Shown: positions 11,183 through 38,073, counted from the stretch's first letter. The stretch: DNA of 64,000 bases from a virus (IMGVR_UViG_3300038393_000245:76289-140288), one strand, 5' to 3'. Made by a program: numbers and translations. The notes: a model not told the origin generated them from the sequence alone.

Positions 11183-11211
11183 TTGACATTTTTCTGGCAC
11201 TATATTATAAG
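11183..11211 (+). promoter_or_regulatory. early promoter TTGACA-N17-TATAAG
   Basis: ttgacatttttctggcactatattataag. A 28-nt near-identical copy is at 11670-11698. Confidence 0.6.
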
Positions 11212-11661: not shown

Positions 11662-11669
11662 AAAAGCCT

Positions 11670-11698
11670 TTGACATTTTTCTAGCACTATATTATAAA
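11670..11698 (+). promoter_or_regulatory. early promoter (duplicate of 11183) with AAAAAGCC upstream
   Basis: aaaaagccTTTGACAtttttctagcactatattataaa. Confidence 0.6.
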
Positions 11699-14361: not shown

Positions 14362-14408
14362 TGTAGAACTCGGGCAACTTTTCTAGGGCCCACTTTTTTA
14401 CGGAAACG

Positions 14409-15614: not shown

Positions 15615-15629
15615 TCCCTAGAGAAAACA

Positions 15630-16043
15630 ATGATCGATCTCATCGAAAGACCGTCTATTACTACCGGTGGCGATCTCCCTCCGATCCTTCAGCATCCCCG
15701 ACCTCGCCGAGATGACGAACCGATTATCATTCCAGACGTCTGTTTCATTCAAGATCAACACAAGATCTACGATCACGAGAACAACGACATCACGATCGTC
15801 TACTTTCACATGCACCGAGTATGGGGATTCTACGACCGATGTCAGTACGCTCACTCTCAATCTCGCCGATATCGATCTTGGCTTGAGACGGACAGAGAGT
15901 ATATGAAGTCTGGGATCCCGCCGCACATTCAGTGGGGAGGGTGCATCAAGACTCTTAGAGAGCTCGGACTCCCTCCCCTCGCGCCGGGACAACTCGACTT
16001 TCACGAGCAGTGGAAGATTCGAACTAGAAAGAAGTTCTTCTAG
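15630..16043 (+). CDS. hypothetical protein (137 aa)
   Basis: Long ORF with no recognisable family. Confidence 0.5.
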   Translation: MIDLIERPSITTGGDLPPILQHPRPRRDDEPIIIPDVCFIQDQHKIYDHENNDITIVYFHMHRVWGFYDRCQYAHSQSRRYRSWLETDREYMKSGIPPHIQWGGCIKTLRELGLPPLAPGQLDFHEQWKIRTRKKFF

Positions 16044-16045
16044 AC

Positions 16046-16213
16046 ATGCTCACTCATCTAACATATTATCTCCTCGGAGAACCTGAGAAGCTCTATCATA
16101 AGGGCGGACTTCTCTATGAGCTACAACAGCGCTCTTATAAGGAACTTCAGAGAAGAAACCAAGAGCTCGACGCCTGGAGAAAGAGGTTTCGTCGGTGGCC
16201 GTACTGAGGAGTT
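16046..16213 (+). CDS. hypothetical small protein (55 aa, not in ORF track)
   Basis: ATG 3 nt after the upstream stop. The alternative frame 16116..16370 gives an Arg/Ser-rich low-complexity product. Confidence 0.3.
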
Positions 16214-16245
16214 CTGCCGCTCCGAAAAATTTTGGAAGTGTTCCT

Positions 16246-16455
16246 ATGGCAAAGACCGATATGAAAGTAGTAGAGAAAAACTGGGAGTCAGACGGATACT
16301 TCTATACGATCTTCAAAGAAGGAATCCTATACTCGGTAGCTCCTCATGTAGGACAGCCAGAAGAAGCTAGAACGATAGAGAGTATTAAGAAGGCTCATCG
16401 ATCGTTTCTAGACATCAAGGTCAGAAATCTCAGAGTTGCTCCGGAAAAATTCTGA
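16246..16455 (+). CDS. hypothetical protein (70 aa)
   Basis: ATG at 16246 with GGAAG 9 nt upstream. The listed ORF uses an upstream non-ATG start. Confidence 0.45.
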   Translation: MAKTDMKVVEKNWESDGYFYTIFKEGILYSVAPHVGQPEEARTIESIKKAHRSFLDIKVRNLRVAPEKF

Positions 16456-16537
16456 AGAACGAGGGAACGCTTCAATGGACCCTTATGGATACCAACGATC
16501 GAAGGTTCGATATGGGACCCATTGTGGCACATGGCAA

Positions 16538-16563
16538 GGGCGACCATGCGATCGCCCTTGCTT
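16538..16563. terminator. bidirectional hairpin terminator between convergent blocks
   Basis: CAAGGGCGA-ccatgcga-TCGCCCTTG, perfect 9-bp stem, lying between the plus-strand operon end (16455) and the minus-strand gene end (16592). Confidence 0.55.
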
Positions 16564-16591
16564 CCGTGCGTTCGAGTGTGCGTAGAGATCG

Positions 16592-16942
16592 TTAGTCCTC
16601 GTCGGCGTCCTCCGCGACGGGAGCGAACTCGGCGCCATTCTCGGCGAGCGAGATGTAGCCGTGACCCGAGTCGTGGCGAATGTCGTCCATGCGCAGGCCC
16701 TCGTCGAGGCAATCCTGAACACTCACGCCGCCCTCGATCGTCCAGTCGATCGCGAAATACCCCTTAAAACGGTCGTACGACATCGACGGCTTTTTCTTGG
16801 GATTCTTCGTGACGTTAAGGCGTACGAGGGTGGTCGCCTTCCACTGGTCGCGCTTGGACAATGAGGCGAGGGTGTCGTTCGTGGCGACTTGGGTCATTGC
16901 AAGGTCCTTTCCATTGCCGTTTTGATGGGACCATTCTACCAC
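16592..16942 (-). CDS. hypothetical protein (116 aa), GC-rich
   Basis: Promoter TTTACA-N17-TAGAAT at 16934-16961 directly upstream. Confidence 0.5.
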   Translation of the reverse strand: MVEWSHQNGNGKDLAMTQVATNDTLASLSKRDQWKATTLVRLNVTKNPKKKPSMSYDRFKGYFAIDWTIEGGVSVQDCLDEGLRMDDIRHDSGHGYISLAENGAEFAPVAEDADED

Positions 16943-16961
16943 GAATCAATGGTATTGTAAA
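16934..16961 (-). promoter_or_regulatory. early promoter AAAAGCCC-TTTACA-N17-TAGAAT
   Basis: Reverse complement aaaagcccTTTACAataccattgattcgtggTAGAAT. Confidence 0.55.
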
Positions 16962-17041
16962 GGGCTTTTTTTTCGTTCGTGTTGAATTTTGTGGTTGACA
17001 TTTCCGATTAATCGAATTCGAATCGGATGGATGATACAGTG

Positions 17042-17302
17042 TTACTCGTCCTCGTCGCGACGAGGATCCACCAGACTCATCGACTCGATCACGTAACGAT
17101 CCCCGGTGACCGACTCGCATATGATAGTGCAGTCGCTGTCCATCAGTCGATAGACCGAGCCCGAGTCGAGAGCGTCGAATGAGCGCTCAAGAGCGTTAAC
17201 CGTGGAGAGCATGCTCTCCAGAACGTGCGACAGATGGAGCGAGCAGACGAGCGAGCTAGCGCTGCCGTTAGCGTGCCGGATGTATCCGATGTAGGCTCTC
17301 AT
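17042..17302 (-). CDS. hypothetical protein (86 aa)
   Basis: ATG at 17302 in ATGA overlap with the upstream membrane ORF. Confidence 0.45.
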   Translation of the reverse strand: MRAYIGYIRHANGSASSLVCSLHLSHVLESMLSTVNALERSFDALDSGSVYRLMDSDCTIICESVTGDRYVIESMSLVDPRRDEDE

Positions 17303-17490
17303 CGCGCGATCCACAGGACTACGATGAGCACGATAGCGAAGATCGTGAGACCGTCGAGCAGCCCACCGATCCACACTCTGTGCAGCACCATATAAGGCGC
17401 CATCGGCGTGCTCCAGAGGTCGCGCGCCAGAAGGAACGAGGCGACGATACAGAGCGCCGCAATCAATGCAAGGACAATCAATGCCATCAC
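17299..17490 (-). CDS. small membrane protein (2 TM)
   Basis: Hydrophobic 63 aa. Confidence 0.5.
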   Translation of the reverse strand: MMALIVLALIAALCIVASFLLARDLWSTPMAPYMVLHRVWIGGLLDGLTIFAIVLIVVLWIAR

Positions 17491-17669
17491 TTCACCTCCA
17501 CGTCTTGGACTAGTCGATACAACCGGTCTCGATAGAAGAAGAGACCGGTATCAGGCTCGATCGCGTACTGCAGCTGCTCCAGGAAGTCGTCGCCCCACTC
17601 GATCATGATGAACCGAACGGAGACCGGGATGGGGTCTGGCTGCCTGTATACGTGAATCGGAATAAACAT
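17487..17669 (-). CDS. hypothetical protein (60 aa)
   Basis: GGAGGT SD. Promoter at 17697-17725. Confidence 0.45.
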   Translation of the reverse strand: MFIPIHVYRQPDPIPVSVRFIMIEWGDDFLEQLQYAIEPDTGLFFYRDRLYRLVQDVEVK

Positions 17670-17696
17670 GGAACTATTACCTCCGAATATAGTAGT

Positions 17697-17725
17697 ATTC
17701 TATATCGCAGGACTGGAAATGTCAA
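17697..17725 (-). promoter_or_regulatory. early promoter TTGACA-N15-TATAGAAT
   Basis: Reverse complement TTGACAtttccagtcctgcgaTATAGAAT. Confidence 0.6.
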
Positions 17726-17905
17726 TAGCAAAGTTATCGAGTCGAACAGAAGTACTCAGGGTCGGAGTCGTCCGATGCGCGAGAGAATCATCGAGTGATG
17801 AGAAACAACGAACGACTCAGCGGTCGCAAGGTTGAGTACAATAGGGCGCGATAGGGCGCTGAAGCGTGCAATAGGGCGCTCGCGTACGTTTTCAGAACAG
17901 GGATT

Positions 17906-18112
17906 TTATTCCATGTCATCTAGCAACGCTCTCTTCGCTTCTTTCAACGTCTTATAGAATGCGCGGCCCGGAGTCGAGCTAGGAGACATCACGCCAGGAA
18001 CTGATACGATGCATCCACCGTGAGCTCTATATCGCTTTATAGTACCAACGACTCTTCCGTCTTTGAGTACTACGACCGTCTCGTTCTTTATCGGAGTGAA
18101 GTCGTATCCCAT
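17906..18112 (-). CDS. hypothetical protein (68 aa)
   Basis: Promoter at 18119-18147 whose -10 ends 6 nt before the ATG, a possible leaderless mRNA. Confidence 0.5.
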   Translation of the reverse strand: MGYDFTPIKNETVVVLKDGRVVGTIKRYRAHGGCIVSVPGVMSPSSTPGRAFYKTLKEAKRALLDDME

Positions 18113-18165
18113 GGTCGTAGTCTATCACAGTCAGATAGAAATGTCAAGGAGCGATATCATGATAC

Positions 18166-18324
18166 TATGATCCTCTTACCGAGGCGAGAAGCTCGTAGTA
18201 GTCGAATCTTATCTCTACGAGATCGTGGCCGATTTCTACTGGAGTTTTTGTATTGACGATTTCTATCTGTTCGAGGATTTCTCCGCCTTCTGTCGTTACG
18301 ATGAGGATGACGGAGGCCATCAGC
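18166..18324 (-). CDS. hypothetical small protein (52 aa, not in track)
   Basis: ATGA overlap with the stop of 18320..18616. Confidence 0.3.
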
Positions 18325-18616
18325 TTTCTCCTATGACGTAGCTGACCTTCAGGGCGTTCTTCTGCCAGGTGTTCAGAGACGACAGGACGTCGATGTCGAA
18401 CTTATCGAGCCTGCACTCGAAGTGATCTCGAGCGGCGTACTGGTCGGAGCTCGACATGCCGTTGAGTCGAGAGACCATCTCCTCGAGGCCGGCGAAGTCG
18501 TTCTCTCGATAGATCTCCTCGCTCTGGAGTAGCGTGACGTCGTCGGTATAGACGCCACCCTCACAGAGCTCGTCCTCGCCACGCTCGTTGATGAACACCA
18601 GGAATCGATAGCTCAT
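18320..18616 (-). CDS. hypothetical acidic protein (98 aa)
   Basis: ORF track. GC-rich codons. Confidence 0.5.
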   Translation of the reverse strand: MSYRFLVFINERGEDELCEGGVYTDDVTLLQSEEIYRENDFAGLEEMVSRLNGMSSSDQYAARDHFECRLDKFDIDVLSSLNTWQKNALKVSYVIGES

Positions 18617-18629
18617 TGACGAACTCCCT

Positions 18630-18860
18630 TCAGATCGATGCCACGGCGAACGCGTCTTTCTCGACGTGCTCGTATAGCGATGACAGCCTGGCGGCCTCTG
18701 CCTCGGCGTCTCTTTCTTTTCGAAACGCCGACTGGACGGAGCCTACGACTTCGACGCTTACGTCCTTATCGATGTAGACGACGTGATTGAAGCCCATGAG
18801 GAGCAGGTCGCGTCTCTCGTTCTGGTCGAGGCGAATGCGGTCGTTTGAGAGTGGCATCAC
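18630..18860 (-). CDS. hypothetical protein (76 aa)
   Basis: ORF track. Confidence 0.5.
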   Translation of the reverse strand: MMPLSNDRIRLDQNERRDLLLMGFNHVVYIDKDVSVEVVGSVQSAFRKERDAEAEAARLSSLYEHVEKDAFAVASI

Positions 18861-19039
18861 GGGTACTTTCTGTACGCTCGGGGCTGTTCGAGCTCGGTGT
18901 TCAGAGGGACGGAGATGATTCCGTGCTCTCCACAGTCGAGACTCATCCTCGGGCCTCGATTGAAGACGAGGTGTATGTGTCTACGAACATACTTCTCGAC
19001 TCTTCGAACCCTGCGACGATGGGCCGTTCTCCACCTCAT
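18857..19039 (-). CDS. hypothetical basic protein (60 aa)
   Basis: ATGA overlap with the upstream 44-aa ORF. Confidence 0.35.
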   Translation of the reverse strand: MRWRTAHRRRVRRVEKYVRRHIHLVFNRGPRMSLDCGEHGIISVPLNTELEQPRAYRKYP

Positions 19040-19170
19040 CGAGACTTCCTGTCACGGCGAATCATTCGACGAACATCGGATCTCGTCTCGCATCCGTCGG
19101 CGAAGGCGGGACGGCACTTGGTGACAGTGCGAGTCTCGAGAGCTTCCGCGATGAGTTCGGCATCGGTCAT
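19036..19170 (-). CDS. hypothetical small protein (44 aa, not in track)
   Basis: First ATG after the promoter at 19199-19227. SD AGAGGAAAGGG. Confidence 0.3.
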   Translation of the reverse strand: MTDAELIAEALETRTVTKCRPAFADGCETRSDVRRMIRRDRKSR

Positions 19171-19198
19171 TTGAAGTCCCTTTCCTCTTGATATCCCC

Positions 19199-19227
19199 TA
19201 TTCTATACATCAGAAGAAAAACGTCAA
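19199..19227 (-). promoter_or_regulatory. early promoter TTGACG-N-TATAGAAT
   Basis: Reverse complement ccaTTGACGtttttcttctgatgtaTAGAATA. Confidence 0.55.
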
Positions 19228-19230
19228 TGG

Positions 19231-19389
19231 CTATTTTTTCGACAGCTCTCGCTTCTCGGCTGCTCTCAGCTCGTACACGTACTGACGATTCTGCAGATCG
19301 ATGAGTTGCACCTCCTCGACTTCGCCTCGATGTAGCATCCTGATGAGGAGAGCGAGGTTATGCATCGAATAGTCGACAGGGCTCTTCAT
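19231..19389 (-). CDS. hypothetical small protein (52 aa, not in track)
   Basis: ORF between 19422..19718 and the promoter at 19199-19227. Confidence 0.25.
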   Translation of the reverse strand: MKSPVDYSMHNLALLIRMLHRGEVEEVQLIDLQNRQYVYELRAAEKRELSKK

Positions 19390-19421
19390 GAGCCCGCGTT
19401 TATTCTGATCGATACCGCCTT

Positions 19422-19718
19422 CTATCGCATCGTCTTTCGAGAGAGGATCGAGGAGAGGACTCGAACCATTCGATTCTTGTCGTTCAGGTGCTCGCTCATA
19501 GTGAGAGTGAATGACTGGGCGAAATTGGGCTCGTTGCGAGCCAGAGTCCCCACGAGATACCCTCCGATGACTCCATTCTTCTTCTCGAAGCTCCTCTCGG
19601 TCCAGATCGAGGCGAAAGCGATGCCGCGATCATCAGACGCGATATCGAGACCATAATCAGCGCCCTCTAGGGCGCTCTTAGCCGTTTCGAATGAGACATC
19701 GTCCACGATGTATTTCAT
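19422..19718 (-). CDS. hypothetical protein (98 aa)
   Basis: Promoter at 19751-19778. Confidence 0.5.
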   Translation of the reverse strand: MKYIVDDVSFETAKSALEGADYGLDIASDDRGIAFASIWTERSFEKKNGVIGGYLVGTLARNEPNFAQSFTLTMSEHLNDKNRMVRVLSSILSRKTMR

Positions 19719-19750
19719 CTCACCATTTCCTCTCTTTCGTGTATGATGTC

Positions 19751-19778
19751 ATTCTATATCGAAGAAAGAAAATGTCAA
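19751..19778 (-). promoter_or_regulatory. early promoter TTGACA-N-TATAGAAT
   Basis: Reverse complement ggTTGACAttttctttcttcgaTATAGAAT. Confidence 0.6.
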
Positions 19779-19788
19779 CCCTCGTTTA

Positions 19789-20097
19789 TCAAGAAGCTCC
19801 CATCGTAAAAACGAAGTTTGCAGCATAATCCTCACAATAGGCTGGCTTGTCGTATTTCACATTCCAACCTTTGGATCGATACGCTTCCTCGAAATTGAGG
19901 TATCCCTTGTTGAAAATTACGTTACGAGATAATCCGCGTTCGCAGAGTTCGAAGACGATATCCTCTTGAAGAATCGTCGCTCTTCCGTGCGTATATTTTA
20001 GAGCGAGAAGACGATTCACCACCTCAAATACTTCGTCAGGAATGTTTTCCGACTTCGCTTTAGCGATATCGTCTGGTGAGATGGGTTCGACTGCCAT
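19789..20097 (-). CDS. hypothetical protein (102 aa)
   Basis: ORF track. Confidence 0.5.
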   Translation of the reverse strand: MAVEPISPDDIAKAKSENIPDEVFEVVNRLLALKYTHGRATILQEDIVFELCERGLSRNVIFNKGYLNFEEAYRSKGWNVKYDKPAYCEDYAANFVFTMGAS

Positions 20098-20120
20098 TTT
20101 AATTCTCCGTGTTGTTCATG

Positions 20121-20378
20121 TCAATCGTTATCCAATCGATTCGAATAGCTTTTCACGAACGTGAGATCATTTCCATCGACGTCCGTGTAGTGAATCACAT
20201 GGTACGTGGAAGTCCATACGACGGACTCGACTCGGAGTGCGAAACGATCGTACTCGTAGAGTTCTCTCGCCATCTTAGTGGCGTCTTCCTCGCTGAGTCG
20301 AACAGTATGATCGCTCGAGCACATCCTCATCCTGAGGAGATGATCGGTCAGGTGTCGTTGCATCGCACTCATATTCAC
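20121..20378 (-). CDS. hypothetical protein (85 aa)
   Basis: ORF track. Overlapping start/stop with the next ORF. Confidence 0.45.
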   Translation of the reverse strand: MNMSAMQRHLTDHLLRMRMCSSDHTVRLSEEDATKMARELYEYDRFALRVESVVWTSTYHVIHYTDVDGNDLTFVKSYSNRLDND

Positions 20379-20692
20379 GCTCCAGCCAGCGTAATGTACT
20401 TTTCAGGGAACCCCATCGAGACGGGAATGATATCGTATGACATCTCATTATCCACGAACGAGAAGCTAAGAGAACCATCATCGTTTTGTTCGAATGATTC
20501 TCGTGTCTCCAAGATGTCTCTGAGATCTAGTTGCTCATCGTCGTCGATATAGTTCTCGATGTAGTCGTTCACCTCAGAAAGGATGTGATCCTTAGCCTCG
20601 TCGATTGACTCGGCGATTCCCATAAGAGAGACATTAACATCGAATACCTTGGTGACGTATTCTGTATTGTGTCGAATCACTAAGTACATCAC
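20375..20692 (-). CDS. hypothetical acidic protein (105 aa)
   Basis: ORF track. Confidence 0.5.
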   Translation of the reverse strand: MMYLVIRHNTEYVTKVFDVNVSLMGIAESIDEAKDHILSEVNDYIENYIDDDEQLDLRDILETRESFEQNDDGSLSFSFVDNEMSYDIIPVSMGFPEKYITLAGA

Positions 20693-20711
20693 AAGACCCT
20701 TTCGAAAGATC

Positions 20712-20993
20712 TCAGCCGGCGACCTTCAGCCAACGGCCGTCTGGCTGCCTCTCGTATTTTTGACCTCGTCCAAGGCCAAGAGAACAACCATAAGAAACGA
20801 ATGCGTCGTGACCGATGTTTCCCCACCCGATTCCAGGAACGTTCGCGTCATACATGACGTCTCCAAGAGGAGTACCGTTGACCTGACAGTGAGTAGGGTT
20901 GGACCCAATCCAGTAGATTCGATCGCTCATCCGTGTCTCCATCGTTGGCTTAAAAAGAGAGTCGATGGCGAGACGGCCTGGGATTTCCCACAA
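20712..20993 (-). CDS. hypothetical protein (93 aa)
   Basis: GTG start with GAGAGGT SD. Promoter at 21117-21147. Confidence 0.4.
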   Translation of the reverse strand: MWEIPGRLAIDSLFKPTMETRMSDRIYWIGSNPTHCQVNGTPLGDVMYDANVPGIGWGNIGHDAFVSYGCSLGLGRGQKYERQPDGRWLKVAG

Positions 20994-21143
20994 TTACCTC
21001 TCGCTTTTCCCATTGGCGACTAACCCAATGAAACGGACGATTTGATGCCAGTCTAGCATTTGTCGCCCACTTTAATATCCACCGACACTCTTTTTAAACC
21101 AACCTCCTCTATATTCGTATACTAATACGATATAAAGAAAATG

Positions 21144-21353
21144 TCAACTTCGTTTTTTTCGATACCAGCTCTCGAGCCTTTGGTCCTTTCGATCGGACCA
21201 CCATCTCCAGATTTGATGCAGCTCTGTGGATTTATGGATGTTGACGCACGAGCTCCAATTATCCATCGCTCTCTCGCATCGATCCTGCATCTGATCGAGC
21301 GAGAGATTCTCTGAGATATAGTAGATGATAGCGCTCATATGTTTACGTACCAC
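21144..21353 (-). CDS. hypothetical protein (69 aa)
   Basis: ORF track. Confidence 0.35.
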   Translation of the reverse strand: MVRKHMSAIIYYISENLSLDQMQDRCERAMDNWSSCVNIHKSTELHQIWRWWSDRKDQRLESWYRKKRS

Positions 21354-21601
21354 CTCTGTCCAACGAGAGCAGTGTCCTCGTTGGAGAATAGAAGACGACC
21401 ATTCTCACCATACGTATGACCACAACAATCATACGAGTGAGTGCAGTGCGATCCTGGATATTTTTGAGAGACCATCTCTCTCAGTTCGTCTGGAGTCATA
21501 TTCTCATGAGAGATGATGTAGTAGTCGATTCCGGACGATGCGTCATCCGGATCGTAGTACTTTGTTGAGAGCCCCAGAACAGTGTATCGTTCATCGCTCA
21601 T
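21335..21601 (-). CDS. hypothetical Cys/His-rich protein (88 aa)
   Basis: HCTHSYDCCGH cluster. Confidence 0.5.
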   Translation of the reverse strand: MSDERYTVLGLSTKYYDPDDASSGIDYYIISHENMTPDELREMVSQKYPGSHCTHSYDCCGHTYGENGRLLFSNEDTALVGQRWYVNI

Positions 21602-21828
21602 TGGGCCATCTCCTCAAGAAGATACGTTCCAACGTATGGAACGCACGTCGTCTTCAGTTCAGAGAGTCGATCCGTCGTTGTAGTGATTACACGACAATCA
21701 TTGTACGTGTTTCGAACGTATGACCTTAACCACTCGTAGTTAGAACGATCGGATCGAGACAGGCAGAAGATATCGTGAATACGATCATCCTGTCTATCCA
21801 CCGGTATCAAGACGATTTGCCTGGACAT
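21598..21828 (-). CDS. hypothetical protein (76 aa)
   Basis: Promoter at 21849-21878. Confidence 0.5.
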   Translation of the reverse strand: MSRQIVLIPVDRQDDRIHDIFCLSRSDRSNYEWLRSYVRNTYNDCRVITTTTDRLSELKTTCVPYVGTYLLEEMAQ

Positions 21829-21848
21829 CAGGAACCTCCCATCTTGAT

Positions 21849-21878
21849 TATTCTACTACATGTGATTAGAAATGTCAA
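21849..21878 (-). promoter_or_regulatory. early promoter TTGACA-N17-TAGAAT
   Basis: Reverse complement tgTTGACAtttctaatcacatgtagTAGAAT. Confidence 0.6.
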
Positions 21879-21987
21879 CAGACGATTTATTGTAATCCGG
21901 CTTACAGGAGACCGCGAGAGACGCGGTCGTCACTGCTAGTATGATTCCAATGATAGCTCGCCACATAGAGAATTCCCCCTCGAGTAG

Positions 21988-22070
21988 AAGAGAAGGCCGG
22001 AATCGAACCGACGACAGGTCCTAAGAGGGGTTACAATCCCAGGACTGCTCTACCACTGAGCTACTTCTCT
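21988..22070 (-). tRNA. atypical tRNA-like gene (83 nt), candidate anticodon UGU (Thr) on an abnormally extended anticodon arm
   Basis: Reverse complement reads AGAGAAG-UA-GCUC-AGUGGUA-GAGC-A...GUCGG-UUCGAUU-CCGGC-CUUCUCU-U. Acceptor, U8A9, D-arm and T-arm are canonical. The anticodon arm is 28 nt (GUCCU-GGG-AUUGUAA-CCC-CUCUU-AGGAC) instead of 17. Consensus promoter at 22078-22108 places the transcription start at its 5' end. Confidence 0.5.
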
Positions 22071-22077
22071 TCCATGT

Positions 22078-22108
22078 ATATTCTAATACACTTGAAAAGA
22101 AATGTCAA
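22078..22108 (-). promoter_or_regulatory. early promoter TTGACA-N17-TAGAAT driving the tRNA-like gene
   Basis: Reverse complement ccaTTGACAtttcttttcaagtgtatTAGAATatacaTGG. The +1 position falls at or near the tRNA 5' end. Confidence 0.6.
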
Positions 22109-22117
22109 TGGCAAAAT

Positions 22118-22423
22118 CTAGGTGAGAGCGCACCCATCTAGAAACTCGATCGCCCAGCTGCTGTACGAGAATCTCTTTCTGAGTTCCTCGTTAGAGTGAT
22201 CCTTGATTTGATCGTACCACGATCGAGCCTCTTCGTGAAAGAGCTCTTCGTGCTCATCGCTCTCCATCAAGTGACCGGCGAGAGAATCGATCTCGCCTTC
22301 TGGAGTGTCGCACCAGTGTTCAGGGTTTCCAAGAGGGTCTCGAACGTGTTGTCGGAGACCAAGGTTGCTCACGGCCAGCATAGCGGCAAGATGAGATAAA
22401 ATTTGTCCTCGAGTTTGAGTCAC
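22118..22423 (-). CDS. hypothetical protein (101 aa)
   Basis: ORF track. Confidence 0.5.
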   Translation of the reverse strand: MTQTRGQILSHLAAMLAVSNLGLRQHVRDPLGNPEHWCDTPEGEIDSLAGHLMESDEHEELFHEEARSWYDQIKDHSNEELRKRFSYSSWAIEFLDGCALT

Positions 22424-22797
22424 GCTGCCTCCTTCTTCTCCTCATTGCGACGAATGCGATATTCATATTCGCGAACGGCGCTGTCGAAAACTCTCTTCAC
22501 CCACTTGGAACGAGACTCATTGGGGAAGACATTCGTCCTCAACCCGATATGATCTCGAACGTTCTGAAGAGTGATGTCGATCTCCCCTTTGGGCCACGGA
22601 GAAATCGCGTCATCCGCTTTCAGCCGGATGAAGAACTCGATGTAATTCTTTTCGGTGATCTCTCCAATGCCCGTCGACATCGTAGCGAAGATGAGATACT
22701 CGGTCACCGGATTAAGTCGATTGTCGTCGATAAGACACCTCGACTTCCAGTCCTTAATTCGAGTCAACTCGTAATTGAGGCTCATTGTTTCCTCCAT
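22420..22797 (-). CDS. hypothetical protein (125 aa)
   Basis: Promoter at 22808-22835. Confidence 0.5.
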   Translation of the reverse strand: MEETMSLNYELTRIKDWKSRCLIDDNRLNPVTEYLIFATMSTGIGEITEKNYIEFFIRLKADDAISPWPKGEIDITLQNVRDHIGLRTNVFPNESRSKWVKRVFDSAVREYEYRIRRNEEKKEAA

Positions 22798-22807
22798 TTC
22801 TTATCAT

Positions 22808-22835
22808 ATACTAATTCGATAAGAAGGAAATGTCA
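22808..22835 (-). promoter_or_regulatory. early promoter TTGACA-N17-TAGTAT
   Basis: Reverse complement TTGACAtttccttcttatcgaatTAGTAT. Confidence 0.55.
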
Positions 22836-22844
22836 ATAGACGAT

Positions 22845-23198
22845 TTATTCGTCTTCTGTGGCGAGGGAGAGAGACTCTTTTTGGAGTTCTCTCGAGAGAT
22901 CGTACTCGGGGATAAGAGAGCCTCCGGTATCCCACGTCCGAGCCGTGTCGAGTTTGTCATTGAAGGCGAGTCGACCCTCTTCTTCGGTTCTGTGATATCG
23001 GCCCCAGAAGAATGACCGAGGGTGAAGAGATCCCCTCGGACGAGTGAAACTCCAGGCGATGAACTCGTCTTTGTCGTCTCCGAACTTATTCGGATTGCGC
23101 ATCAGAATGAGCCCACCAGCCTGAGTGAATCTGTCCGGTCGTGTGTACCGAACATCCAGGACTTCCATTCCGTTTACGATATCACCCTTCTTCATCAC
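22845..23198 (-). CDS. hypothetical protein (117 aa)
   Basis: Promoter at 23227-23254. Confidence 0.5.
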   Translation of the reverse strand: MMKKGDIVNGMEVLDVRYTRPDRFTQAGGLILMRNPNKFGDDKDEFIAWSFTRPRGSLHPRSFFWGRYHRTEEEGRLAFNDKLDTARTWDTGGSLIPEYDLSRELQKESLSLATEDE

Positions 23199-23226
23199 TC
23201 GACTCCCATCTGTGATTTATGGGATT

Positions 23227-23254
23227 ATTCTATATCGAGGAGAAAAAACGTCAA
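23227..23254 (-). promoter_or_regulatory. early promoter AAAAGCCC-TTGACG-N-TATAGAAT
   Basis: Reverse complement aaaagcccTTGACGttttttctcctcgaTATAGAAT. Confidence 0.55.
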
Positions 23255-23287
23255 GGGCTTTTAATAACACAAACAAAGAAGAATCTG

Positions 23288-23316
23288 TTGACAATTGTGA
23301 TTTGTTTGATTAGAAT
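23288..23316 (+). promoter_or_regulatory. consensus TTGACA-N17-TAGAAT on the plus strand, antisense to the 3' end of gene 23310..23498
   Basis: ttgaca attgtgatttgtttgat tagaat. Three hairpins lie downstream at 23350-23400. Confidence 0.4.
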
Positions 23317-23498
23317 GAGAAGCCTCGACTCCTCTTTCCATTCGACACAGAAAAGTACTCGAATGGACTCAACGTCGAGTCGAACTTCTTCTTCGACTTA
23401 AACTTAGAGCGTCCCGTTGACATTGGAATCTTTTGTACTCGAACAGCCTTTTCCAATTTGTTTAGAGAGACTACAGTATTCTCTTTTTGTTCTTTCAT
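23310..23498 (-). CDS. small Lys/Arg-rich basic protein (62 aa)
   Basis: AAGGAGGAG SD 5 nt upstream of the ATG. Confidence 0.45.
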   Translation of the reverse strand: MKEQKENTVVSLNKLEKAVRVQKIPMSTGRSKFKSKKKFDSTLSPFEYFSVSNGKRSRGFSF

Positions 23499-23508
23499 TT
23501 CTCCTCCT

Positions 23509-23793
23509 TCATGTCGAGCTCAGAACCCACGCTCTCTTGCCGTCCGATATCGTATAGACTCTCCAGATCGAGCCGTCGCCGAAGAGATCGTTCACTTCGA
23601 GAAGCGCTCCCTCTTCAACCTCTCCACCATGGAATCGGAACCGTTGCCCAGGTCCAAGAGAATACTTGATAGAGTCGTGAACCATTACGGTATCTTCTCT
23701 AACGTCCTCAATCTCAACTAGTTCATACTCGTGGCCGTGACTTCGAACGTACTCTTCTAGTATCTTCAGCAATGGATCTGAGATCGTCTCCAT
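23509..23793 (-). CDS. hypothetical acidic protein (94 aa)
   Basis: ORF track. Confidence 0.5.
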   Translation of the reverse strand: METISDPLLKILEEYVRSHGHEYELVEIEDVREDTVMVHDSIKYSLGPGQRFRFHGGEVEEGALLEVNDLFGDGSIWRVYTISDGKRAWVLSST

Positions 23794-24074
23794 CAGAACA
23801 GCCCTCCGAGTGAGTCAAACTTCTCTTCGAACCCCCACGAGTGGCCTCTTCCTTTGAAGACTCTCGCATATAGATTAGGATGCCCCGTCGCATTAACGGG
23901 GTCGCCAGGCTTTCGAAGGAGTATTTCGGTAGACGACGAGGAGTACGCGACCGTGTAGCCAGCGTCATTGGCTCTTTTAAGAGCCCTTTGTTGGTGCTCT
24001 CTAGATCGATCTGGCATGAGGTTCTTCAAGAGGCCGAGCTCCCATCCACGAGAAGTTCCTCTCTGTCTTCCCAT
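23793..24074 (-). CDS. hypothetical protein (93 aa or shorter), overlaps the upstream ORF
   Basis: Overlaps 24001..24354 by 74 nt in another frame. An internal ATG at 24019 would reduce the overlap to 17 nt. Confidence 0.35.
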   Translation of the reverse strand: MGRQRGTSRGWELGLLKNLMPDRSREHQQRALKRANDAGYTVAYSSSSTEILLRKPGDPVNATGHPNLYARVFKGRGHSWGFEEKFDSLGGLF

Positions 24075-24354
24075 ATAGAAGACCTCCAGGATAGTCGGAA
24101 CGAGGAGGGTCTATAGCGTGGTTGGCAGCGTTGATGATAATCTCACACATCGGCTTTTCCGAGATGAGTCCATCACCAAAGCACTCGAGGCCCCAGTGTT
24201 GTTCTCCGTATCCCGATCCTTCCGGAGATACGTCTTCGGCATCTACCATGAGTCCGTACAAGCGTCCGCGCTTCATCTTGATATCATCGAACATGTTCAA
24301 CTGGTCCTTTCTAGGACGACCCAGGAATGCATTCCACCAGGTATCAATTCCCAT
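24001..24354 (-). CDS. hypothetical protein (117 aa)
   Basis: Promoter at 24362-24390. Confidence 0.45.
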   Translation of the reverse strand: MGIDTWWNAFLGRPRKDQLNMFDDIKMKRGRLYGLMVDAEDVSPEGSGYGEQHWGLECFGDGLISEKPMCEIIINAANHAIDPPRSDYPGGLLYGKTERNFSWMGARPLEEPHARSI

Positions 24355-24361
24355 TATGCTT

Positions 24362-24390
24362 ATTCTATATCAGAGAATAAAACATGTAAA
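24362..24390 (-). promoter_or_regulatory. early promoter AAAAGCCC-TTTACA-N-TATAGAAT
   Basis: Reverse complement aaaagcccTTTACAtgttttattctctgaTATAGAAT. Confidence 0.55.
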
Positions 24391-24422
24391 GGGCTTTTAT
24401 TTTATTCAGACAGTTGACAATA

Positions 24423-24680
24423 TTATAGCGGCTGCTTATAAGAGTAGACGTTTTGTTTATTCTTAACGTCCATAACGTTTCCATTGATCGTGACAGATTC
24501 TACGATCCTCTGATCGGTTCCGTCCTCATTGACGCTATTGAGTCTCTCGAGTTGTTCGAAAAACATGTAACCGTCACTGTCTTCGTTATCAAAGTTTTGG
24601 ATCGTAATGGATCCGTCGATGTTGTTCGTGTATGTGAGTGTCCAGACTCGATCGCCCACAACCATAGAGGCTTTTTTCAT
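24423..24680 (-). CDS. hypothetical protein (85 aa)
   Basis: AAGGG SD. Preceded by a ~280-nt structured leader. Confidence 0.5.
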   Translation of the reverse strand: MKKASMVVGDRVWTLTYTNNIDGSITIQNFDNEDSDGYMFFEQLERLNSVNEDGTDQRIVESVTINGNVMDVKNKQNVYSYKQPL

Positions 24681-24967
24681 TTATTCCCTTGTTTGTATGA
24701 GGTGGGTGGAGACGACCTTCCAGTTGGCCTAGGCGTCGCCCCCACCCTCTCACCGTGCCCGAGGATGGGAGGGTTAGGCACGGCAAGTTCAAATTTCAAT
24801 CGAATACTTTGGTCTGTTGTCGTTGACCGGCTTCTTTTCTTTAACGCCTGACATGAGCCGTATGAGTGCTGAACCGTTGGTATATCTTAACGCACCATCA
24901 CGACTCAGAAAACTATAGCACGGAAGACCACAGACCCAAAGCACGATCCTATTCCAATCCTAGGGCT

Positions 24968-24995
24968 ATTCTATCACAGACTCCTAAAATTGTCA
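24968..24995 (-). promoter_or_regulatory. early promoter TTGACA-N17-TAGAAT
   Basis: Reverse complement ccTTGACAattttaggagtctgtgaTAGAAT. Confidence 0.6.
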
Positions 24996-25196
24996 AGGCA
25001 ATATTTCAAGAGACTTATTGTGCTGCTCGAGAACCCGAACCTCTACGAGTCTTGCGCTCATGTAGTCAGGAATCACCTCAACGGCCTTATTGAACCTTTC
25101 GACGGCTCCATCTCGAGTATCCCGGAATCGTCGAACCGTGTCCCATCCATCTCCGGTGTCGACATCGATGGCAAACTGCACACAATTTTTGGCCAT
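24993..25196 (-). CDS. hypothetical protein (67 aa)
   Basis: ORF track. Confidence 0.4.
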   Translation of the reverse strand: MAKNCVQFAIDVDTGDGWDTVRRFRDTRDGAVERFNKAVEVIPDYMSARLVEVRVLEQHNKSLEILP

Positions 25197-26209
25197 TACC
25201 TTCGGCCTCCCTTTTCGATGTATGAGATGAACCCGTGTTCCTCAATAGTAAACCGAAGATCATTCTTCTTCTTCTCTTTCATCGCATTGAGGAAGTTGAT
25301 GCACCTCTCAACGGTGAGTGGACGCTCTGGAACCGAGAGCGTCATGTGTTTTGGAAATTGAAAGTTGGGGTGAAGATCGACTCTGGGCGCCTCATCGCGA
25401 TGTACAATCTCCATCGCTCTTTGCCCAGTCTCGATGATCTCTTCTTGTGGTGTGGGAGGAGTCTTAAGAGGAGTCGCGATCTCTTCAATCTTAACGTCCT
25501 CTTTCTTCTCCAGAGACTCGATTCTCTTTTTCCCTCTCAAAATCGGGGGCAGTCGATCCTTTGGAACCTCGATAAGAATTTCGTTCTTATGAGGTCTCAC
25601 TCCAACAGCAGGGGCCGATCTGAACTCTCCGAACTTCTCTTTAACTCCAGGAGCCATGGTAGAAGACATGACAAGGACGAATGCACGAGACATCTTCGAG
25701 TATCCTCCTTGAATGATGCCATCGACCTTCTTCTTGCCTTTTGGGAGTTCCTTTTTGACCACGGCTATCCATGGATCTTTTTCGAGTGAGTGGCTCGTCC
25801 TCAGTTCGATCCCCCAGTGTCCTGCCGGTCTATGATCCTTGTCAACGAATCTTTCAAAAAGCTCATTCCCTTCGGGAATCGTTACGAAAATCTGAGTACT
25901 CGTGATTCCAACCCTAATGGGTGATCCCTCGGCCATGTTGTGTTTTTCCTCTTTCATCTGTCGCCTACCAGGGATCATCTCCCTTCTCTCGGCTCCAATC
26001 TCTCGAAGCACGGACCTCATGTTAGTAACAACATTCTTTGGTCCTCGAACGGTGTCGCTTCCAGTGGATGGAAGGGTTATGAACTTCCTTTTTCCACTAA
26101 GAGTAAAGGTCGCCTTCCTGTGCTTACTCAGACGATCCCACTCTATCGACACTCCTGGCCAGTGCTCGATCTCTTGTTCGACTGCTGATATGAATGGATC
26201 TCGAGCCAT
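25196..26209 (-). CDS. hypothetical protein (~337 aa), Lys-rich
   Basis: ATG at 26209 with GGAG SD. The listed 26224 start is TTG. Confidence 0.55.
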   Translation of the reverse strand: MARDPFISAVEQEIEHWPGVSIEWDRLSKHRKATFTLSGKRKFITLPSTGSDTVRGPKNVVTNMRSVLREIGAERREMIPGRRQMKEEKHNMAEGSPIRVGITSTQIFVTIPEGNELFERFVDKDHRPAGHWGIELRTSHSLEKDPWIAVVKKELPKGKKKVDGIIQGGYSKMSRAFVLVMSSTMAPGVKEKFGEFRSAPAVGVRPHKNEILIEVPKDRLPPILRGKKRIESLEKKEDVKIEEIATPLKTPPTPQEEIIETGQRAMEIVHRDEAPRVDLHPNFQFPKHMTLSVPERPLTVERCINFLNAMKEKKKNDLRFTIEEHGFISYIEKGGRR

Positions 26210-26363
26210 TAATCGTCTCCCCAATCACATCGACAGGAGTTGCACCTCCAACGATGAAGATTGGAATCCCACGACGCGTCGTCCTTGCACCATATCAGGC
26301 ACTTGAGACGATTTAGTGGAACCACGATGGCTCTCACTATGCGACGAATCTTTTCCCTCTTCG

Positions 26364-26543
26364 TCATAGGGCGTATTCGGGCTGGAGGATGAACCCATTC
26401 GCGTCCATCGTCTTAATCCCACGGTGCATGCTCTTTTCGAGAGAGGCTCGAACTCGCATGAGATGAAGAGTAGTAGTCTGGCGTGGAAGCCTCGTCCTGA
26501 AGACGTGTCCATTCACATTGACCGACTCTATCAGAATATCCAT
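26364..26543 (-). CDS. hypothetical small protein (59 aa)
   Basis: ATG at 26543 with perfect GGAGGT SD 6 nt upstream. Promoter at 26568-26595. Confidence 0.45.
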   Translation of the reverse strand: MDILIESVNVNGHVFRTRLPRQTTTLHLMRVRASLEKSMHRGIKTMDANGFILQPEYAL

Positions 26544-26620
26544 TTGCACCTCCCATTTGATGATACATCTTAATTCATGATAGGAAAAATGTCAATAACA
26601 TGTTAAAAATCGGCACACCA

Positions 26621-26649
26621 TTGACAATTCTATCGAGAGTGGTTATAAT
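26621..26649 (+). promoter_or_regulatory. perfect sigma70 consensus promoter (TTGACA-N17-TATAAT) with no ORF downstream
   Basis: ttgaca attctatcgagagtggt tataat. The transcript would run ~215 nt to the terminator at 26845-26875. Confidence 0.6.
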
Positions 26650-26689
26650 GGCTTTGGGCCCAATGAACTATTAGATCGTGTTTCTCAGA

Positions 26690-26789
26690 TGGCCACTGAT
26701 CAATGGATAAATCTAAACAATAGGATATACCATTTATCTCGATAATGTATTCTAAGGCCACTCTGAAGGGCAAATTCCATATCGATTTT
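26690..26789 (+). repeat. inverted repeat copy A (core 26719-26789)
   Basis: aataggatataccatttatctcgata + 11-nt variable block + ggccactctgaagggcaaattccatatcgatttt. Reverse-complement copy at 29005-29075. Confidence 0.8.
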
Positions 26790-26844
26790 CATTGATAGGA
26801 GTATTCAATATGATATTCAGAACACGGACACACGAAAAGGGACC

Positions 26845-26875
26845 GAGTTTCCCCGGTCCCTTTGTTTGAGTGATG
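26845..26875. terminator. bidirectional rho-independent terminator
   Basis: GGGACCG-agtttcc-CCGGTCCC followed by TTTGTTTG. Also lies 10 nt past the stop of the minus gene 26885..27463. Confidence 0.65.
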
Positions 26876-26884
26876 TTAGCCTTG

Positions 26885-27463
26885 TTAGGCGGTGGCTTCC
26901 TCGGCCGCGACTTCGGACTTGGCCTCGGCCTTCTCCTCGACCGGGGCATCCTTGAACCCCCAGGCGATGAGGCGCTTCTCGTCGATCGAGAAGCCGGCCT
27001 CGGTCTTCGGAAGCGAAGCCAGATACTCGGCCTGCTCTTCGCGAGTCCCATCGACCGGGAAGTTCTCGGCCTCCTCTCCGAGGAGGATGTGCCGGCGATC
27101 GGCATCCCACGAGATGTCCTTGCCACGAACTCGCTCCGAGCCGTCCTTGTTCCGACGGGCCGTCATGAAGTCGCTCATGGTGAGTCGTGCCGGATACTTG
27201 TCATAGAAGCCGGCAGCCTTGCTGTTCTTGCGCTTCGGGTTCGGAGCGATGACCACCAGGGCCATCGGCTTCTCCGGAATCGCTTCCGGCTGGTTGTCGG
27301 TCGTATTCTCCGACTCGGCGCGGGGACCGGGACGGCGGCCGCCGGTCGAACCACTCGAACCGGACGACTTGGCGGAATCGGTAGCCGAACCCCGGGCTTC
27401 CTGACGGGACGTTGCATTCTTGGCCATTCTTCTTCTCCTGCTCTCGGTGGGTTGAATTTCCAT
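26885..27463 (-). CDS. hypothetical protein (180-192 aa), high-GC
   Basis: GC-rich codons unlike the rest of the genome. Promoter AAAGCC-TTTACA-N17-TAGAAG at 27475-27502. Alternative ATG at 27427 with AGGAGAAG SD. Confidence 0.55.
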   Translation of the reverse strand: MEIQPTESRRRRMAKNATSRQEARGSATDSAKSSGSSGSTGGRRPGPRAESENTTDNQPEAIPEKPMALVVIAPNPKRKNSKAAGFYDKYPARLTMSDFMTARRNKDGSERVRGKDISWDADRRHILLGEEAENFPVDGTREEQAEYLASLPKTEAGFSIDEKRLIAWGFKDAPVEEKAEAKSEVAAEEATA

Positions 27464-27661
27464 CCGATGAACCCCTTCTATACCCGTTAAGTTTTATTGT
27501 AAAGGCTTTTTTTCAATATTCAATTAAAAAGGTTTCGGACGACTAATCACGCTTATTAATCTCACGCGCGCGCGTATAGGGACTTCTTATGATAAAAAGC
27601 CCTTTACATCGAAAATATGATGATATAGTATGGTCAGGTTGGATGCAGAAAGAGGTTTAAC

Positions 27662-28648
27662 ATGACAGCCGTAATGCCGGAGGAACGTAGGATTCCTTCA
27701 ATCCCTCGAGTAGTTACTCGAGGTCCAGCAGCCAGGAAACCTGGAGAAGAGAGCGCCTCGAGCGCCGCGAAGGACGTCCAGTTCTTTTCAAACTCTCCAC
27801 TTCACCGTCAGCTTCGATACCAGTATCTCCCGGATTACGATCCTAACGAATCCGATGAACAGATCGAGGATAAGCTGAATGAGCGCTTTCTTATCATGAA
27901 TGAGCTCACCGATGATGCTATTGACGGAAGGTGTCGAGGGTTCATCGCTTCTGGCCCCGGTGGCGTAGGAAAGACCTACAACATCGACAAAAAGCTCGAG
28001 GAGAGGCTTGGAGAGGATGAGTACACGTCGTATTCAGGGTATTCAACCCCAATCGGTCTACTCAAGATGTTGTGGAACAATCGAGAGGGTCTCATCAAGG
28101 CCGACGATATCGATTCGATCTTCAAAGACGAAAAGGCTCTTAACTATCTAAAGGTCGCGTGTGACACTACGGCTAGGAGAGTCATCACGTATGCGTCTGA
28201 AAACACCCTTTTCGATGAGAACCTCGAACCCATTCCAAAGAGGTTTGAGTTCGATGGAACGATGATCTTCTGCACGAATCTTGATTTCGATTATCTGATC
28301 GATAAGGGTTCGTCTCTCACTCCTCACTTGGAAGCGTTCATCACTCGTTCTCATTACATCGATCTCGCGATGAGAACAAAAAGGGATTATCTTGTTCGTG
28401 TCTATCAGGTGGCCGAACAAGGTCTCTTTGATAACGTTCTTGGAAAGTCTGGAGAACCTCACGGACTCGATAAGAATCAGACCGACGAGGTTTTAGACTT
28501 CATCGAGTCCTACCATCGAAATCTCCGTGAGTGTTCTCTTCGTATGGCACTTAAGATTGGATCACTTCGAAAGGGATTCGATCCCGAGAATGATACCGTA
28601 GATTGGAAGCGTAAGGCGCTTCTGACTTGTTGCAAGGGAGTTCGGTGA
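27662..28648 (+). CDS. AAA+/P-loop NTPase (328 aa)
   Basis: Walker A GPGGVGKT, Walker B LIKADDID, sensor-like FCTN. Promoter AAAAGCCC-TTTACA-N17-TAGTAT at 27603-27631. AGAGGT SD. Confidence 0.6.
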   Translation: MTAVMPEERRIPSIPRVVTRGPAARKPGEESASSAAKDVQFFSNSPLHRQLRYQYLPDYDPNESDEQIEDKLNERFLIMNELTDDAIDGRCRGFIASGPGGVGKTYNIDKKLEERLGEDEYTSYSGYSTPIGLLKMLWNNREGLIKADDIDSIFKDEKALNYLKVACDTTARRVITYASENTLFDENLEPIPKRFEFDGTMIFCTNLDFDYLIDKGSSLTPHLEAFITRSHYIDLAMRTKRDYLVRVYQVAEQGLFDNVLGKSGEPHGLDKNQTDEVLDFIESYHRNLRECSLRMALKIGSLRKGFDPENDTVDWKRKALLTCCKGVR

Positions 28649-37976: not shown

Positions 37977-38073
37977 GCGGCTACACTCCTCTTTCGCTAT
38001 ATTTATTAGTAGTATTATCTACGATACTGGAACTCTAGTTGACATTTTCTAGAGCACGTGATAAGATATAACC

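Follow-up and report, generated by a model that had tools for sequence, protein, structure and literature searches.

Why are the small genes of one phage region interrupted again and again by the same promoter-like sequence? The question is raised by IMGVR_UViG_3300038393_000245:76289-140288, a 64,000-nt stretch of viral DNA (hereafter the window), whose minus strand between 16.5 and 27.5 kb is filled with short open reading frames (ORFs), many of them overlapping or translationally coupled, with short AT-rich gaps between. This region, termed the array, contains about 34 small ORFs and one tRNA-Tyr gene. We found that a single sigma70-type promoter family, with 13 very strong copies and one weak copy, occupies the minus strand from 16.9 to 27.5 kb (a 10.6-kb block). 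Judged from sequence, these copies are probably promoters read by the host RNA polymerase (a probability of roughly 0.82); our confidence that they act strictly early in infection is somewhat lower.

A family of near-identical promoters in the array

The minus-strand copies are listed below with the genes behind them, and the number in the name of each strong copy is the first base of its -35 hexamer.

27475..27513, minus: P27503, the weak copy, AAAAAAAGCC-TTTACA-N17-TAGAAG; before the 180-aa ORF 26885-27427
26567..26595, minus: P26595, TTGACA-17-TAAGAT; before four ORFs (26543-24993)
24968..24996, minus: P24996, TTGACA-17-TGA-TAGAAT; before the small ORF 24789-24944, two hairpins and the 85-aa ORF 24423-24680
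24362..24398, minus: P24390, AAAAGCCC-TTTACA-17-TAGAAT; before four ORFs, with the first ATG 7 nt past the -10, apparently leaderless
23227..23262, minus: P23254, AAAAGCCC-TTGACG-16-TAGAAT; before one ORF (22845-23195)
22808..22836, minus: P22836, TTGACA-17-TAGTAT; before two ORFs
22080..22108, minus: P22108, TTGACA-17-TAGAAT; before tRNA-Tyr(GTA) 21987-22070 and the 36-codon lipoprotein-like ORF 21856-21966
21850..21878, minus: P21878, TTGACA-17-TAGAAT; before three ORFs (21828-21144)
21119..21147, minus: P21147, TTGACA-17-TAGTAT; before a 188-nt leader and four ORFs (20930-19789)
19751..19778, minus: P19778, TTGACA-16-TAGAAT; before two ORFs
19200..19227, minus: P19227, TTGACG-16-TAGAAT; before five overlapping or coupled ORFs (19170-18165)
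18119..18147, minus: P18147, TTGACA-17-TGA-TAGACT; before one ORF, with the ATG 6 nt past the -10, apparently leaderless
17697..17725, minus: P17725, TTGACA-17-TAGAAT; before three ORFs
16933..16969, minus: P16961, AAAAGCCC-TTTACA-17-TGG-TAGAAT; before the 101-aa ORF 16592-16897, the last unit of the array

A position weight matrix (PWM) was built from the 13 strong copies, each of which was scored leave-one-out. The scan, which the first-pass annotation of this DNA had proposed, was run on the window and gave these sites 17-37 bits, compared to 0-2 matches of at least 10 bits in mononucleotide-shuffled windows. The pattern TTGACATTTYY-N12-TAKWAT, with at most one mismatch allowed, had 13 matches in the window against 0.04 expected from dinucleotide-preserving shuffles, and a repeat finder independently returned the array promoters as the direct-repeat families D1-D5 and D8. 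A simple sigma70 consensus scan of the interval from 10 to 29 kb yielded 41 sites versus 21 in shuffles. Eleven of the 13 strong minus-strand copies were in its top ranks, at 10-11 of 12 positions, together with a few matches from outside the family, and the weak copy at 27503 was also listed, but in a different register.

These three lines of evidence (PWM, pattern counts and repeat families) confirmed the dense same-strand array of near-identical sigma70-type promoters that the first-pass annotation had reported here, but its numbers had to be lowered. Instead of at least 18 copies we counted 13 strong and one weak on the minus strand, and a total of 18-20 was reached only by adding the plus-strand sites 27603 and 26621 and the doubtful sites 16995, 23288 and 24414. 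The density was about one promoter per 760 bp rather than one per 500 bp, and each promoter was followed by 1-5 genes rather than by 1-3 ORFs.

The strong copies matched 10-11 of the 12 sigma70 consensus positions, with 16-17 nt between the -35 and -10 hexamers. Their aligned consensus was aaaAA..gcc.-TTGACA-TTTtt.tT.....G..a-TAGAAT-A, or in condensed form A-tract-GCC-TTGACA-TTTYY-N-YG-N3-TAGAAT-A. Bases conserved beyond the standard promoter elements are GCC (-39 to -37), TTT behind the -35, YG (-17/-16), G (-10) and A (-6). In 12 of the 13 copies position -16 is G and the base before it is C or T.

Some further matches were rejected. The match at 20124 (20096..20124, minus strand) has a -10 (TAAAAT) that overlaps the ATG at 20097 and a Shine-Dalgarno sequence inside its spacer, and it is not a promoter for g20097. 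The plus-strand matches at 16995-17023, 23288-23316 and 24414-24442 had no conserved ORF and were not conserved in relatives. Each stands back to back with one of the three AAAAGCCC promoters that the array contains (P16961, P23254 and P24390), and its transcript would run antisense into the upstream gene at the 3' end.

Plus-strand promoter copies were found at the edge of the array and elsewhere in the window:

27595..27631, plus: P27603, divergent from the array, AAAAGCCC-TTTACA-17-TAGTAT; before the 328-aa gene 27662-28648 (phrog_1250)
11183..11211, plus: P11183, outside the array, TTGACATTTTTCTGGCACTATAT-TATAAG; before a Y00F-like gene
11663..11698, plus: P11670, a near-duplicate of P11183 with AAAAAAGCCT upstream; before the ACP-Macro-NADAR cluster
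38039..38067, plus: P38039, TTGACATTTTCT...TGA-TAAGAT; directly before a DNA-ligase-like gene, apparently leaderless

Promoter positions and transcription units

All 14 minus-strand promoters are intergenic and oriented like the ORFs or the tRNA-Tyr gene downstream of them. At most sites the stop codon of the upstream gene lies between the inside of the -35 and a few tens of nucleotides before it (180-290 nt at 26595 and 17725). In three cases, including the rejected match at 20124, the TGA within TTGACA is itself that stop codon, as it is at P24996; the closest of the remaining upstream stops are 3-17 nt before the -35. The distance from the -10 to the first start codon or tRNA is 6-50 nt, except for two long leaders of 188 and 287 nt. 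At P24390, P18147 and P38039, an ATG without a Shine-Dalgarno sequence stands 6-7 nt past the -10, the position where a leaderless mRNA would start, and this provides internal support for the predicted start sites. The 5' end of tRNA-Tyr(GTA) is 9 nt past the -10 of P22108. CCA is not encoded in the tRNA gene, and the phage has a tRNA nucleotidyltransferase gene at 30140-31318.

Only two clear hairpins, at 26838-26854 and 16534-16561, bound the block, and read-through from promoter to promoter is therefore likely. Motifs resembling the T4 late promoter (ATAAATA) were found before structural operons, including that of gp6, and were absent from the array.

Carrier phage and host

By its gene content, the carrier is an uncultured myovirus of the T4 superfamily, on a distant branch that resembles Cr30 and phiM12. 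Matches to PHROG families identified gp6-, gp7- and gp8-like baseplate wedge genes, and Pfam identified Gp6-like, T4 Y00F and gp59 N-terminal domains, with a DNA-ligase OB domain below the gathering score. The baseplate genes, the Pfam domains and the gp59 loader place the phage in the T4 superfamily. The gp6 protein showed 39% identity to those of Caulobacter phage Cr30 and Sinorhizobium phages phiM12, phiN3 and phiM7 over 98-99% of its length, and its more distant matches were in Pelagibacter phage HTVC008M, Melnitz phages and cyanomyophages. Collagen-like tail fibres, NAMPT and a tRNA nucleotidyltransferase are also encoded in the window. The same sequence was present in the Logan assembly of SRR35145397, and identical proteins were encoded on a 173.6-kb JGI contig.

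The alpha-type transfer-messenger RNA (tmRNA), the apparent leaderless starts and the homologues of two array genes in phages of Brevundimonas, Sphingomonas and Roseobacter point to an alphaproteobacterial host. The tmRNA gene (59727-60102, minus strand) is a permuted two-piece gene recognized by Rfam (RF04321, 89 bits; RF01849, 80 bits) and not called by ARAGORN. Two-piece tmRNAs have reportedly been discussed for the T4-like methylophage Melnitz.

Conservation of the promoters in related phages

Relatives were found with the 72-aa product of 20712-20930, and the contigs encoding homologues were compared; they represent two lineages, L004/L005 and L006/L007. Other searches were less productive. 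Megablast of the array against the phage collection found no DNA relatives among cultured phages, IMG/VR searched with single proteins gave no relatives, and a search with the promoter pattern returned only two unrelated contigs. The region beside gp6 in Cr30 is organized differently and was of no use for comparison.

Synteny with L004 extended over the whole region, beginning at the 180-aa gene's orthologue and continuing across the array and the NADAR-Macro-ACP-Y00F cluster to gp6. About half of the 33 array ORFs had homologues in L004, in roughly the same order and with 31-65% amino-acid identity, and the whole units of P21878, P19227, P18147 and P17725 and the tRNA unit were missing there. 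Both the L004 and L006 lineages carried arrays of their own, with the same promoter type at the same genomic position, mostly in the form TTGACATTTTCY...ATCGTGT-TA(T/G)AAT in L004 and, for several copies in L006, CGATAACAAAGTCC-TTTACA-N17-TAGAAT. P26595 and the orthologous promoter at L004 1692 have nearly identical spacers. The orthologue of the 180-aa gene is preceded by AAAAAAAGCC-TTTACA-N17-TAGAAG in L004, including the G at -7 of P27503, and by AAAAAAAGCC-TTTACA-N17-TAGTAT in L006. Orthologues of the 101-aa family in L004 and L006 have TTTACA-type promoters with a CATATCAA-like transcribed start. In L152, a closer relative (82% amino-acid identity), P21147 was kept almost base for base without its long leader. 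As orthologous genes keep orthologous promoters, the motif appears to be a conserved functional element of the phage lineage, not a peculiarity of one genome.

Upstream A-tract and a TTTACA subclass

An UP-like A-tract lies at about -47 to -40 of the promoters (consensus aaaAA at about -47 to -42 in the alignment) and is followed by GCC. Its most regular form is the octamer AAAAGCCC, which spans -43 to -36 given a 17-nt spacer, with AAAA at -43 to -40. The first-pass annotation had described this octamer as abutting the -35. Of its five occurrences in the window, four do so (16961, 23254 and 24390 on the minus strand and 27603 on the plus strand), at the position of the UP-like A-tract of T4-type early promoters (PMC1524935); the variants AAAAAGCC and AAAAAGCCT (AAAGCC(T)) stand before 27503 and 11670. 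The A-run of AAAAGCCC would correspond to the UP-like tract of T4-type phages, and its GCC to the general gcc consensus shared by most copies. The octamer is the best-conserved form of this common upstream consensus and accompanies weaker -35 variants such as TTTACA, where extra upstream contact would matter most.

AAAGCC was present in all four TTTACA promoters and in two of the 14 TTGAC(A/G) promoters (hypergeometric P ~0.005, calculated by hand), an association expected if upstream contacts compensate for a weaker -35. We distinguish class A promoters, TTGACATTT, from class B promoters, A-tract-GCC-TTTACA. The AAAGCC/AAAGTCC-TTTACA variant was also present in the arrays of the relatives.

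Proposed early transcription by the host polymerase

We propose that the promoters are read by host RNA polymerase carrying the primary, sigma70-type sigma factor, and that they drive prereplicative (early) genes of a hyperplastic region rich in ORFans. Each copy stacks a near-consensus -35 (TTGACA, or TTTACA/TTGACG), a 16-17-nt spacer, TAGAAT, the A-tract with GCC, and lineage-specific bases, a combination that would compete strongly for host polymerase right after DNA entry, presumably with the C-terminal domain of the polymerase alpha subunit in contact with the A-tract. The 14 promoters would probably give overlapping read-through transcripts, each boosting the following 1-5 small genes or the tRNA. 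The same promoter type stands before a DNA-ligase-like prereplicative gene and before tRNA-Tyr.

Several observations weigh against this proposal. The classical extended -10 (TGn, with TG at -15/-14) is present in only three of the 13 strong copies (24996, 18147 and 16961), and a G at -16 is conserved instead. Position -10 is G in 11 of the 13 (TAGAAT or TAGACT), which is not the Escherichia coli optimum. A G at -7 normally cripples a sigma70 promoter, and P27503 carries one (TAGAAG), yet it is kept in the L004 orthologue, hinting at some other constraint. Finally, the neighbouring small-gene cluster at 11.2-16.4 kb runs on two promoters, which indicates that a high promoter density is no requirement for small-gene expression in this phage.

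The closest known systems are consistent with the proposal. Early promoters of T4 belong to the 'uber' UP/-35/TGn/-10 type, with extra conserved positions, and out-compete host promoters immediately after infection (PMC2988021). Every T4-like phage examined had its own early motif; common to them were an A-rich stretch from -40 to -44 and either G or T at position -33, and many T4-type early promoters lay 5' of novel ORFs and tRNA genes (PMC1524935). Similar to the array promoters, those of T4, RB69, RB49, 44RR, Aeh1 and KVP40, which host sigma70 reads, combine strong -35 and -10 hexamers about 17 nt apart with an A-rich UP-like tract, phage-specific extra positions and G or T at -33 (TTGACA versus TTTACA), and there are dozens per genome, many of them before small novel ORFs or tRNAs in variable regions (PMC2988021, PMC1524935). 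The array promoters differ in having TAGAAT rather than TATAAT, G at -16 rather than TGn at -15/-14, and C rather than G before the -35 (GCC at -39 to -37). The genes that they serve are also much more GC-rich than the rest of the genome, with a GC content at third codon positions (GC3) of 0.61 versus 0.35. The promoter-early stem-loop (PeSL) cassettes of RB49/phi1, PST/T4 and nt-1/KVP40 likewise repeat an early promoter, a Shine-Dalgarno sequence and a start codon among hyperplastic-region ORFans, with near-perfect TTGACA-N17-TATAAT in RB49/phi1 (PMC4122927). The upstream stem-loop that defines PeSL is missing here except at P22836, the sole copy with a hairpin immediately upstream (AGACGA-ATAAA-TCGTCT). 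Bacillus phage SPO1, from an unrelated phage family with a Gram-positive host, has a compact host-takeover module of about two dozen small early genes with many strong host-sigma promoters, and several of these genes have demonstrated shut-off functions; unlike that module, the array has no ORF with a known shut-off function.

By comparison and literature, the sites have the sequence properties of T4-type early promoters, TGn aside, which partly supports the first-pass reading of them as early promoters, and the promoter type was conserved in two related phages. The layout itself has already been described for the variable early-gene regions of T4-type phages, where dense early promoters in hyperplastic regions are textbook biology, and our understanding of phage transcription is unchanged. 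What is new is its occurrence in an uncultured branch. For this poorly known Cr30/phiM12-like, T4-like branch, it provides a clean lineage-specific early-promoter model, with which early genes, transcription units and small RNAs can be annotated in the metagenomic genomes of related phages, and ORFans chosen as candidates for a role in host takeover or anti-defence. Noteworthy features are the two promoter subclasses, the strong codon-composition split that separates early ORFans from core genes and recurs in a relative, and the conserved non-coding elements embedded in the array.

Alternative explanations

Repeated sequences at such short intervals could also serve mainly, or additionally, as homologous-recombination substrates that shuffle gene cassettes in the manner of PeSL, with promoter activity as the reason why they are tolerated. 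The array promoters are near-identical direct repeats of 29-50 nt spaced 0.2-1.6 kb apart, and promoter duplication, as the first-pass annotation had suggested, was visible in the pairs 11183/11670, 22836/21878 and L004 1692/2093, which share sequence beyond what a promoter needs. The 22836/21878 pair has 12 nt upstream in common (AATAAATCGTCTnTTGACATTTC). The plus-strand pair 11183/11670 was said to share an identical 28-nt stretch; we found instead that 29 of 30 bases, including the whole spacer, were common, in blocks of 13 and 16 nt around one mismatch. Whole units (those of P21878, P19227, P18147 and P17725 and the tRNA unit) were present or absent as blocks in the comparison with L004, and there is a precedent in the PeSL-mediated deletion and exchange described in three branches of T4-like phages (PMC4122927). 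On the other hand, the strongest hairpin in the 70 nt before each promoter averaged -10.8 kcal/mol, no better than the -11.7 kcal/mol of 150 random coding windows of the array, and gene differences also occurred within units (g23793, g22423 and g20372). L004 and L005 were 99.97% identical until a scaffold gap, and L006 and L007 were identical over their whole overlap. The sole apparent breakpoint between near-identical relatives, that of L004 and L005, is a run of N (L004 9294-9393) whose first base lies 10 nt ahead of the place where L005 has a promoter copy. We therefore did not accept the two contigs as a natural recombination pair; short-read assembly of these phages probably breaks at the repeated promoters. 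In unrelated siphophages, homologues of two array genes lie inside operons without a promoter of their own, indicating that across phage families the genes travel without it. The shuffling of cassettes with their own promoters that the first-pass annotation envisaged is in essence the PeSL hypothesis already in print (PMC4122927), and we regard it, like a leading role in recombination, as possible but doubtful.

The conserved bases that sigma70 does not need (TTT, YG at -17/-16, G at -10, A at -6 and GCC) raise another possibility, that a phage factor, such as an injected Alt-like modifier or an early repressor or activator, tunes some or all of the copies or is needed for their activity, with AAAAGCC(C)-TTTACA as a separately regulated class. 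The restriction of AAAGCC mainly to TTTACA promoters, the recurrence of that class with its CATATCAA-like transcribed start in L004 and L006, and the defective -10 shared by P27503 and its L004 orthologue would fit, and in T4 position -33 (G or T) has been linked to the effect of the Alt-modified polymerase (PMC1524935). We nevertheless consider this explanation unlikely: strong -35 and -10 hexamers at optimal spacing suffice for sigma70 alone, no homologue of Alt, ModA, MotA or AsiA was seen in the window, which is part of the genome, and T4 early promoters active with unmodified polymerase typically have extra conserved positions as well (PMC2988021). It is very improbable that the matches are by-products of AT-rich gaps, or a repeated non-promoter element, with no transcriptional role. 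The promoter segments have 31% GC versus 52% in the array ORFs, and more chance strings resembling a -10 are expected there, but the observed number was more than 100-fold above that in dinucleotide-preserving shuffles, all copies are co-oriented with genes at a spacing held to 16-17 nt, and diverged relatives keep the sites in front of orthologous genes. Promoters read by the host polymerase remain our preferred interpretation.

Array genes and their composition

Among the 33 array ORFs, no credible match to Pfam was found (one marginal KRTAP hit, E = 0.005, looks like chance), and four had weak matches to PHROG families whose function is unknown in PHROG. The PDB held no sequence relatives of the three array proteins searched. 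The family of g16897 has only nine relatives, none of them annotated, and its paralogy with g27427 is only marginal (E = 0.01). As all array proteins are ORFans, a host-takeover or anti-defence role of the array would be no more than a reasonable analogy. The Macro and NADAR proteins, which fit an anti-defence role, are encoded in the neighbouring plus-strand cluster, not in the array.

That cluster (11233-13150, plus strand) is convergent on the array and encodes T4 Y00F-like, acyl-carrier-like, Macro and NADAR proteins, of which Macro and NADAR are enzymes that remove ADP-ribose. It is syntenic in L004 and has only the two promoters at 11183 and 11670.

The array ORFs (interval 16592-27427) have 52% GC and a GC3 of 0.61, compared to 40% GC and a GC3 of 0.35 in ten large non-array genes of the window, mostly structural and metabolic. 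The same gradient was found in L004 (1-12400 versus 13500-18494). The split possibly reflects a GC-rich gene pool shared with Brevundimonas and Sphingomonas phages, or selection on early genes.

Lipoprotein-like signal peptides were found in two short ORFs behind family promoters: the 36-codon ORF 21856-21966 (minus strand), which begins MWRAIIGIILAVTTASLAVSC... and directly follows tRNA-Tyr, and an ORF near 52412, downstream of 52460 (minus strand), which begins MRYIILVALILGACS.... Both could encode lipoproteins of the superinfection-exclusion type.

Non-coding and repeated elements in the array

26621..26862, plus: candidate small-RNA gene with a TTGACA-17-TATAAT promoter (12 of 12 positions), about 190 nt without a conserved ORF, and a bidirectional terminator at 26838-26862

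The candidate small-RNA gene runs opposite to the orientation of the array. L004 and L006 have kept its promoter, blocks of its body and its terminator, the stem of which shows compensatory changes. An Rfam scan of the array found only the tRNA, even at E = 1.

Inside the candidate lies a 75-nt intergenic element (26718-26789, plus strand) with an inverted copy at 29005-29076 (minus strand). In the window the two copies, inverted relative to each other and 93% identical, flank a divergent gene pair just beyond its terminators. The element occurs in 2-3 copies per genome, with those of the relatives at about 1480-1590, 6823-6937 and 8792-8903 in L004 and at about 1636-1771 and 4820-4935 in L006, and its conserved blocks are CAATGGGATATACCAT, TCGATAAT and GGCCACTCTGAAGGGC. 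A structured RNA was rejected as an explanation, with neither a consensus structure nor covariation in seven copies, and this makes a site at the DNA level more likely. Possible functions are those of a binding site in the DNA or of a promoter of a different class.

The leader of P21147 contains a 161-nt element (20944-21103, minus strand) with 25-bp terminal inverted repeats, located between the promoter and the Shine-Dalgarno sequence of the 72-aa gene. Folded as RNA, it is predicted to form three hairpins closed by a long stem (-73 kcal/mol, z = -6.8). L152 lacks the element at this site. A host-derived miniature inverted-repeat transposable element (MITE) was rejected, as no second copy was found in the window, the loci of the relatives, 185,579 reference genomes or IMG/VR. 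A MITE-like insertion and a structured 5' RNA are both conceivable.

The long leader of P24996 contains a previously unlisted 51-aa ORF (24789-24944, minus strand) with a GTG start, whose C-terminal PVNDNRPK..IEI is shared with L004 and L007. A purely non-coding RNA is largely ruled out for this leader by the conserved ORF of 51-68 aa within it. Two strong hairpins follow the ORF (24690-24785, minus strand), and their position, not their sequence, is kept in L004.

Taken with a possible second, separately regulated TTTACA class of promoters and the GC3 split, the candidate small RNA, the 75-nt element and the position-kept hairpins would fit an early region under a regulatory and compositional regime of its own, an idea that we hold only tentatively and think rather doubtful. 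If it is true, such a regime could, for example, adapt the region to a GC-rich host or help it to escape silencers directed at AT-rich DNA.

Three copies of GCGCCCTAT were also found within 40 nt at 17841-17879 (minus strand), in the 180-nt non-coding gap upstream of P17725.

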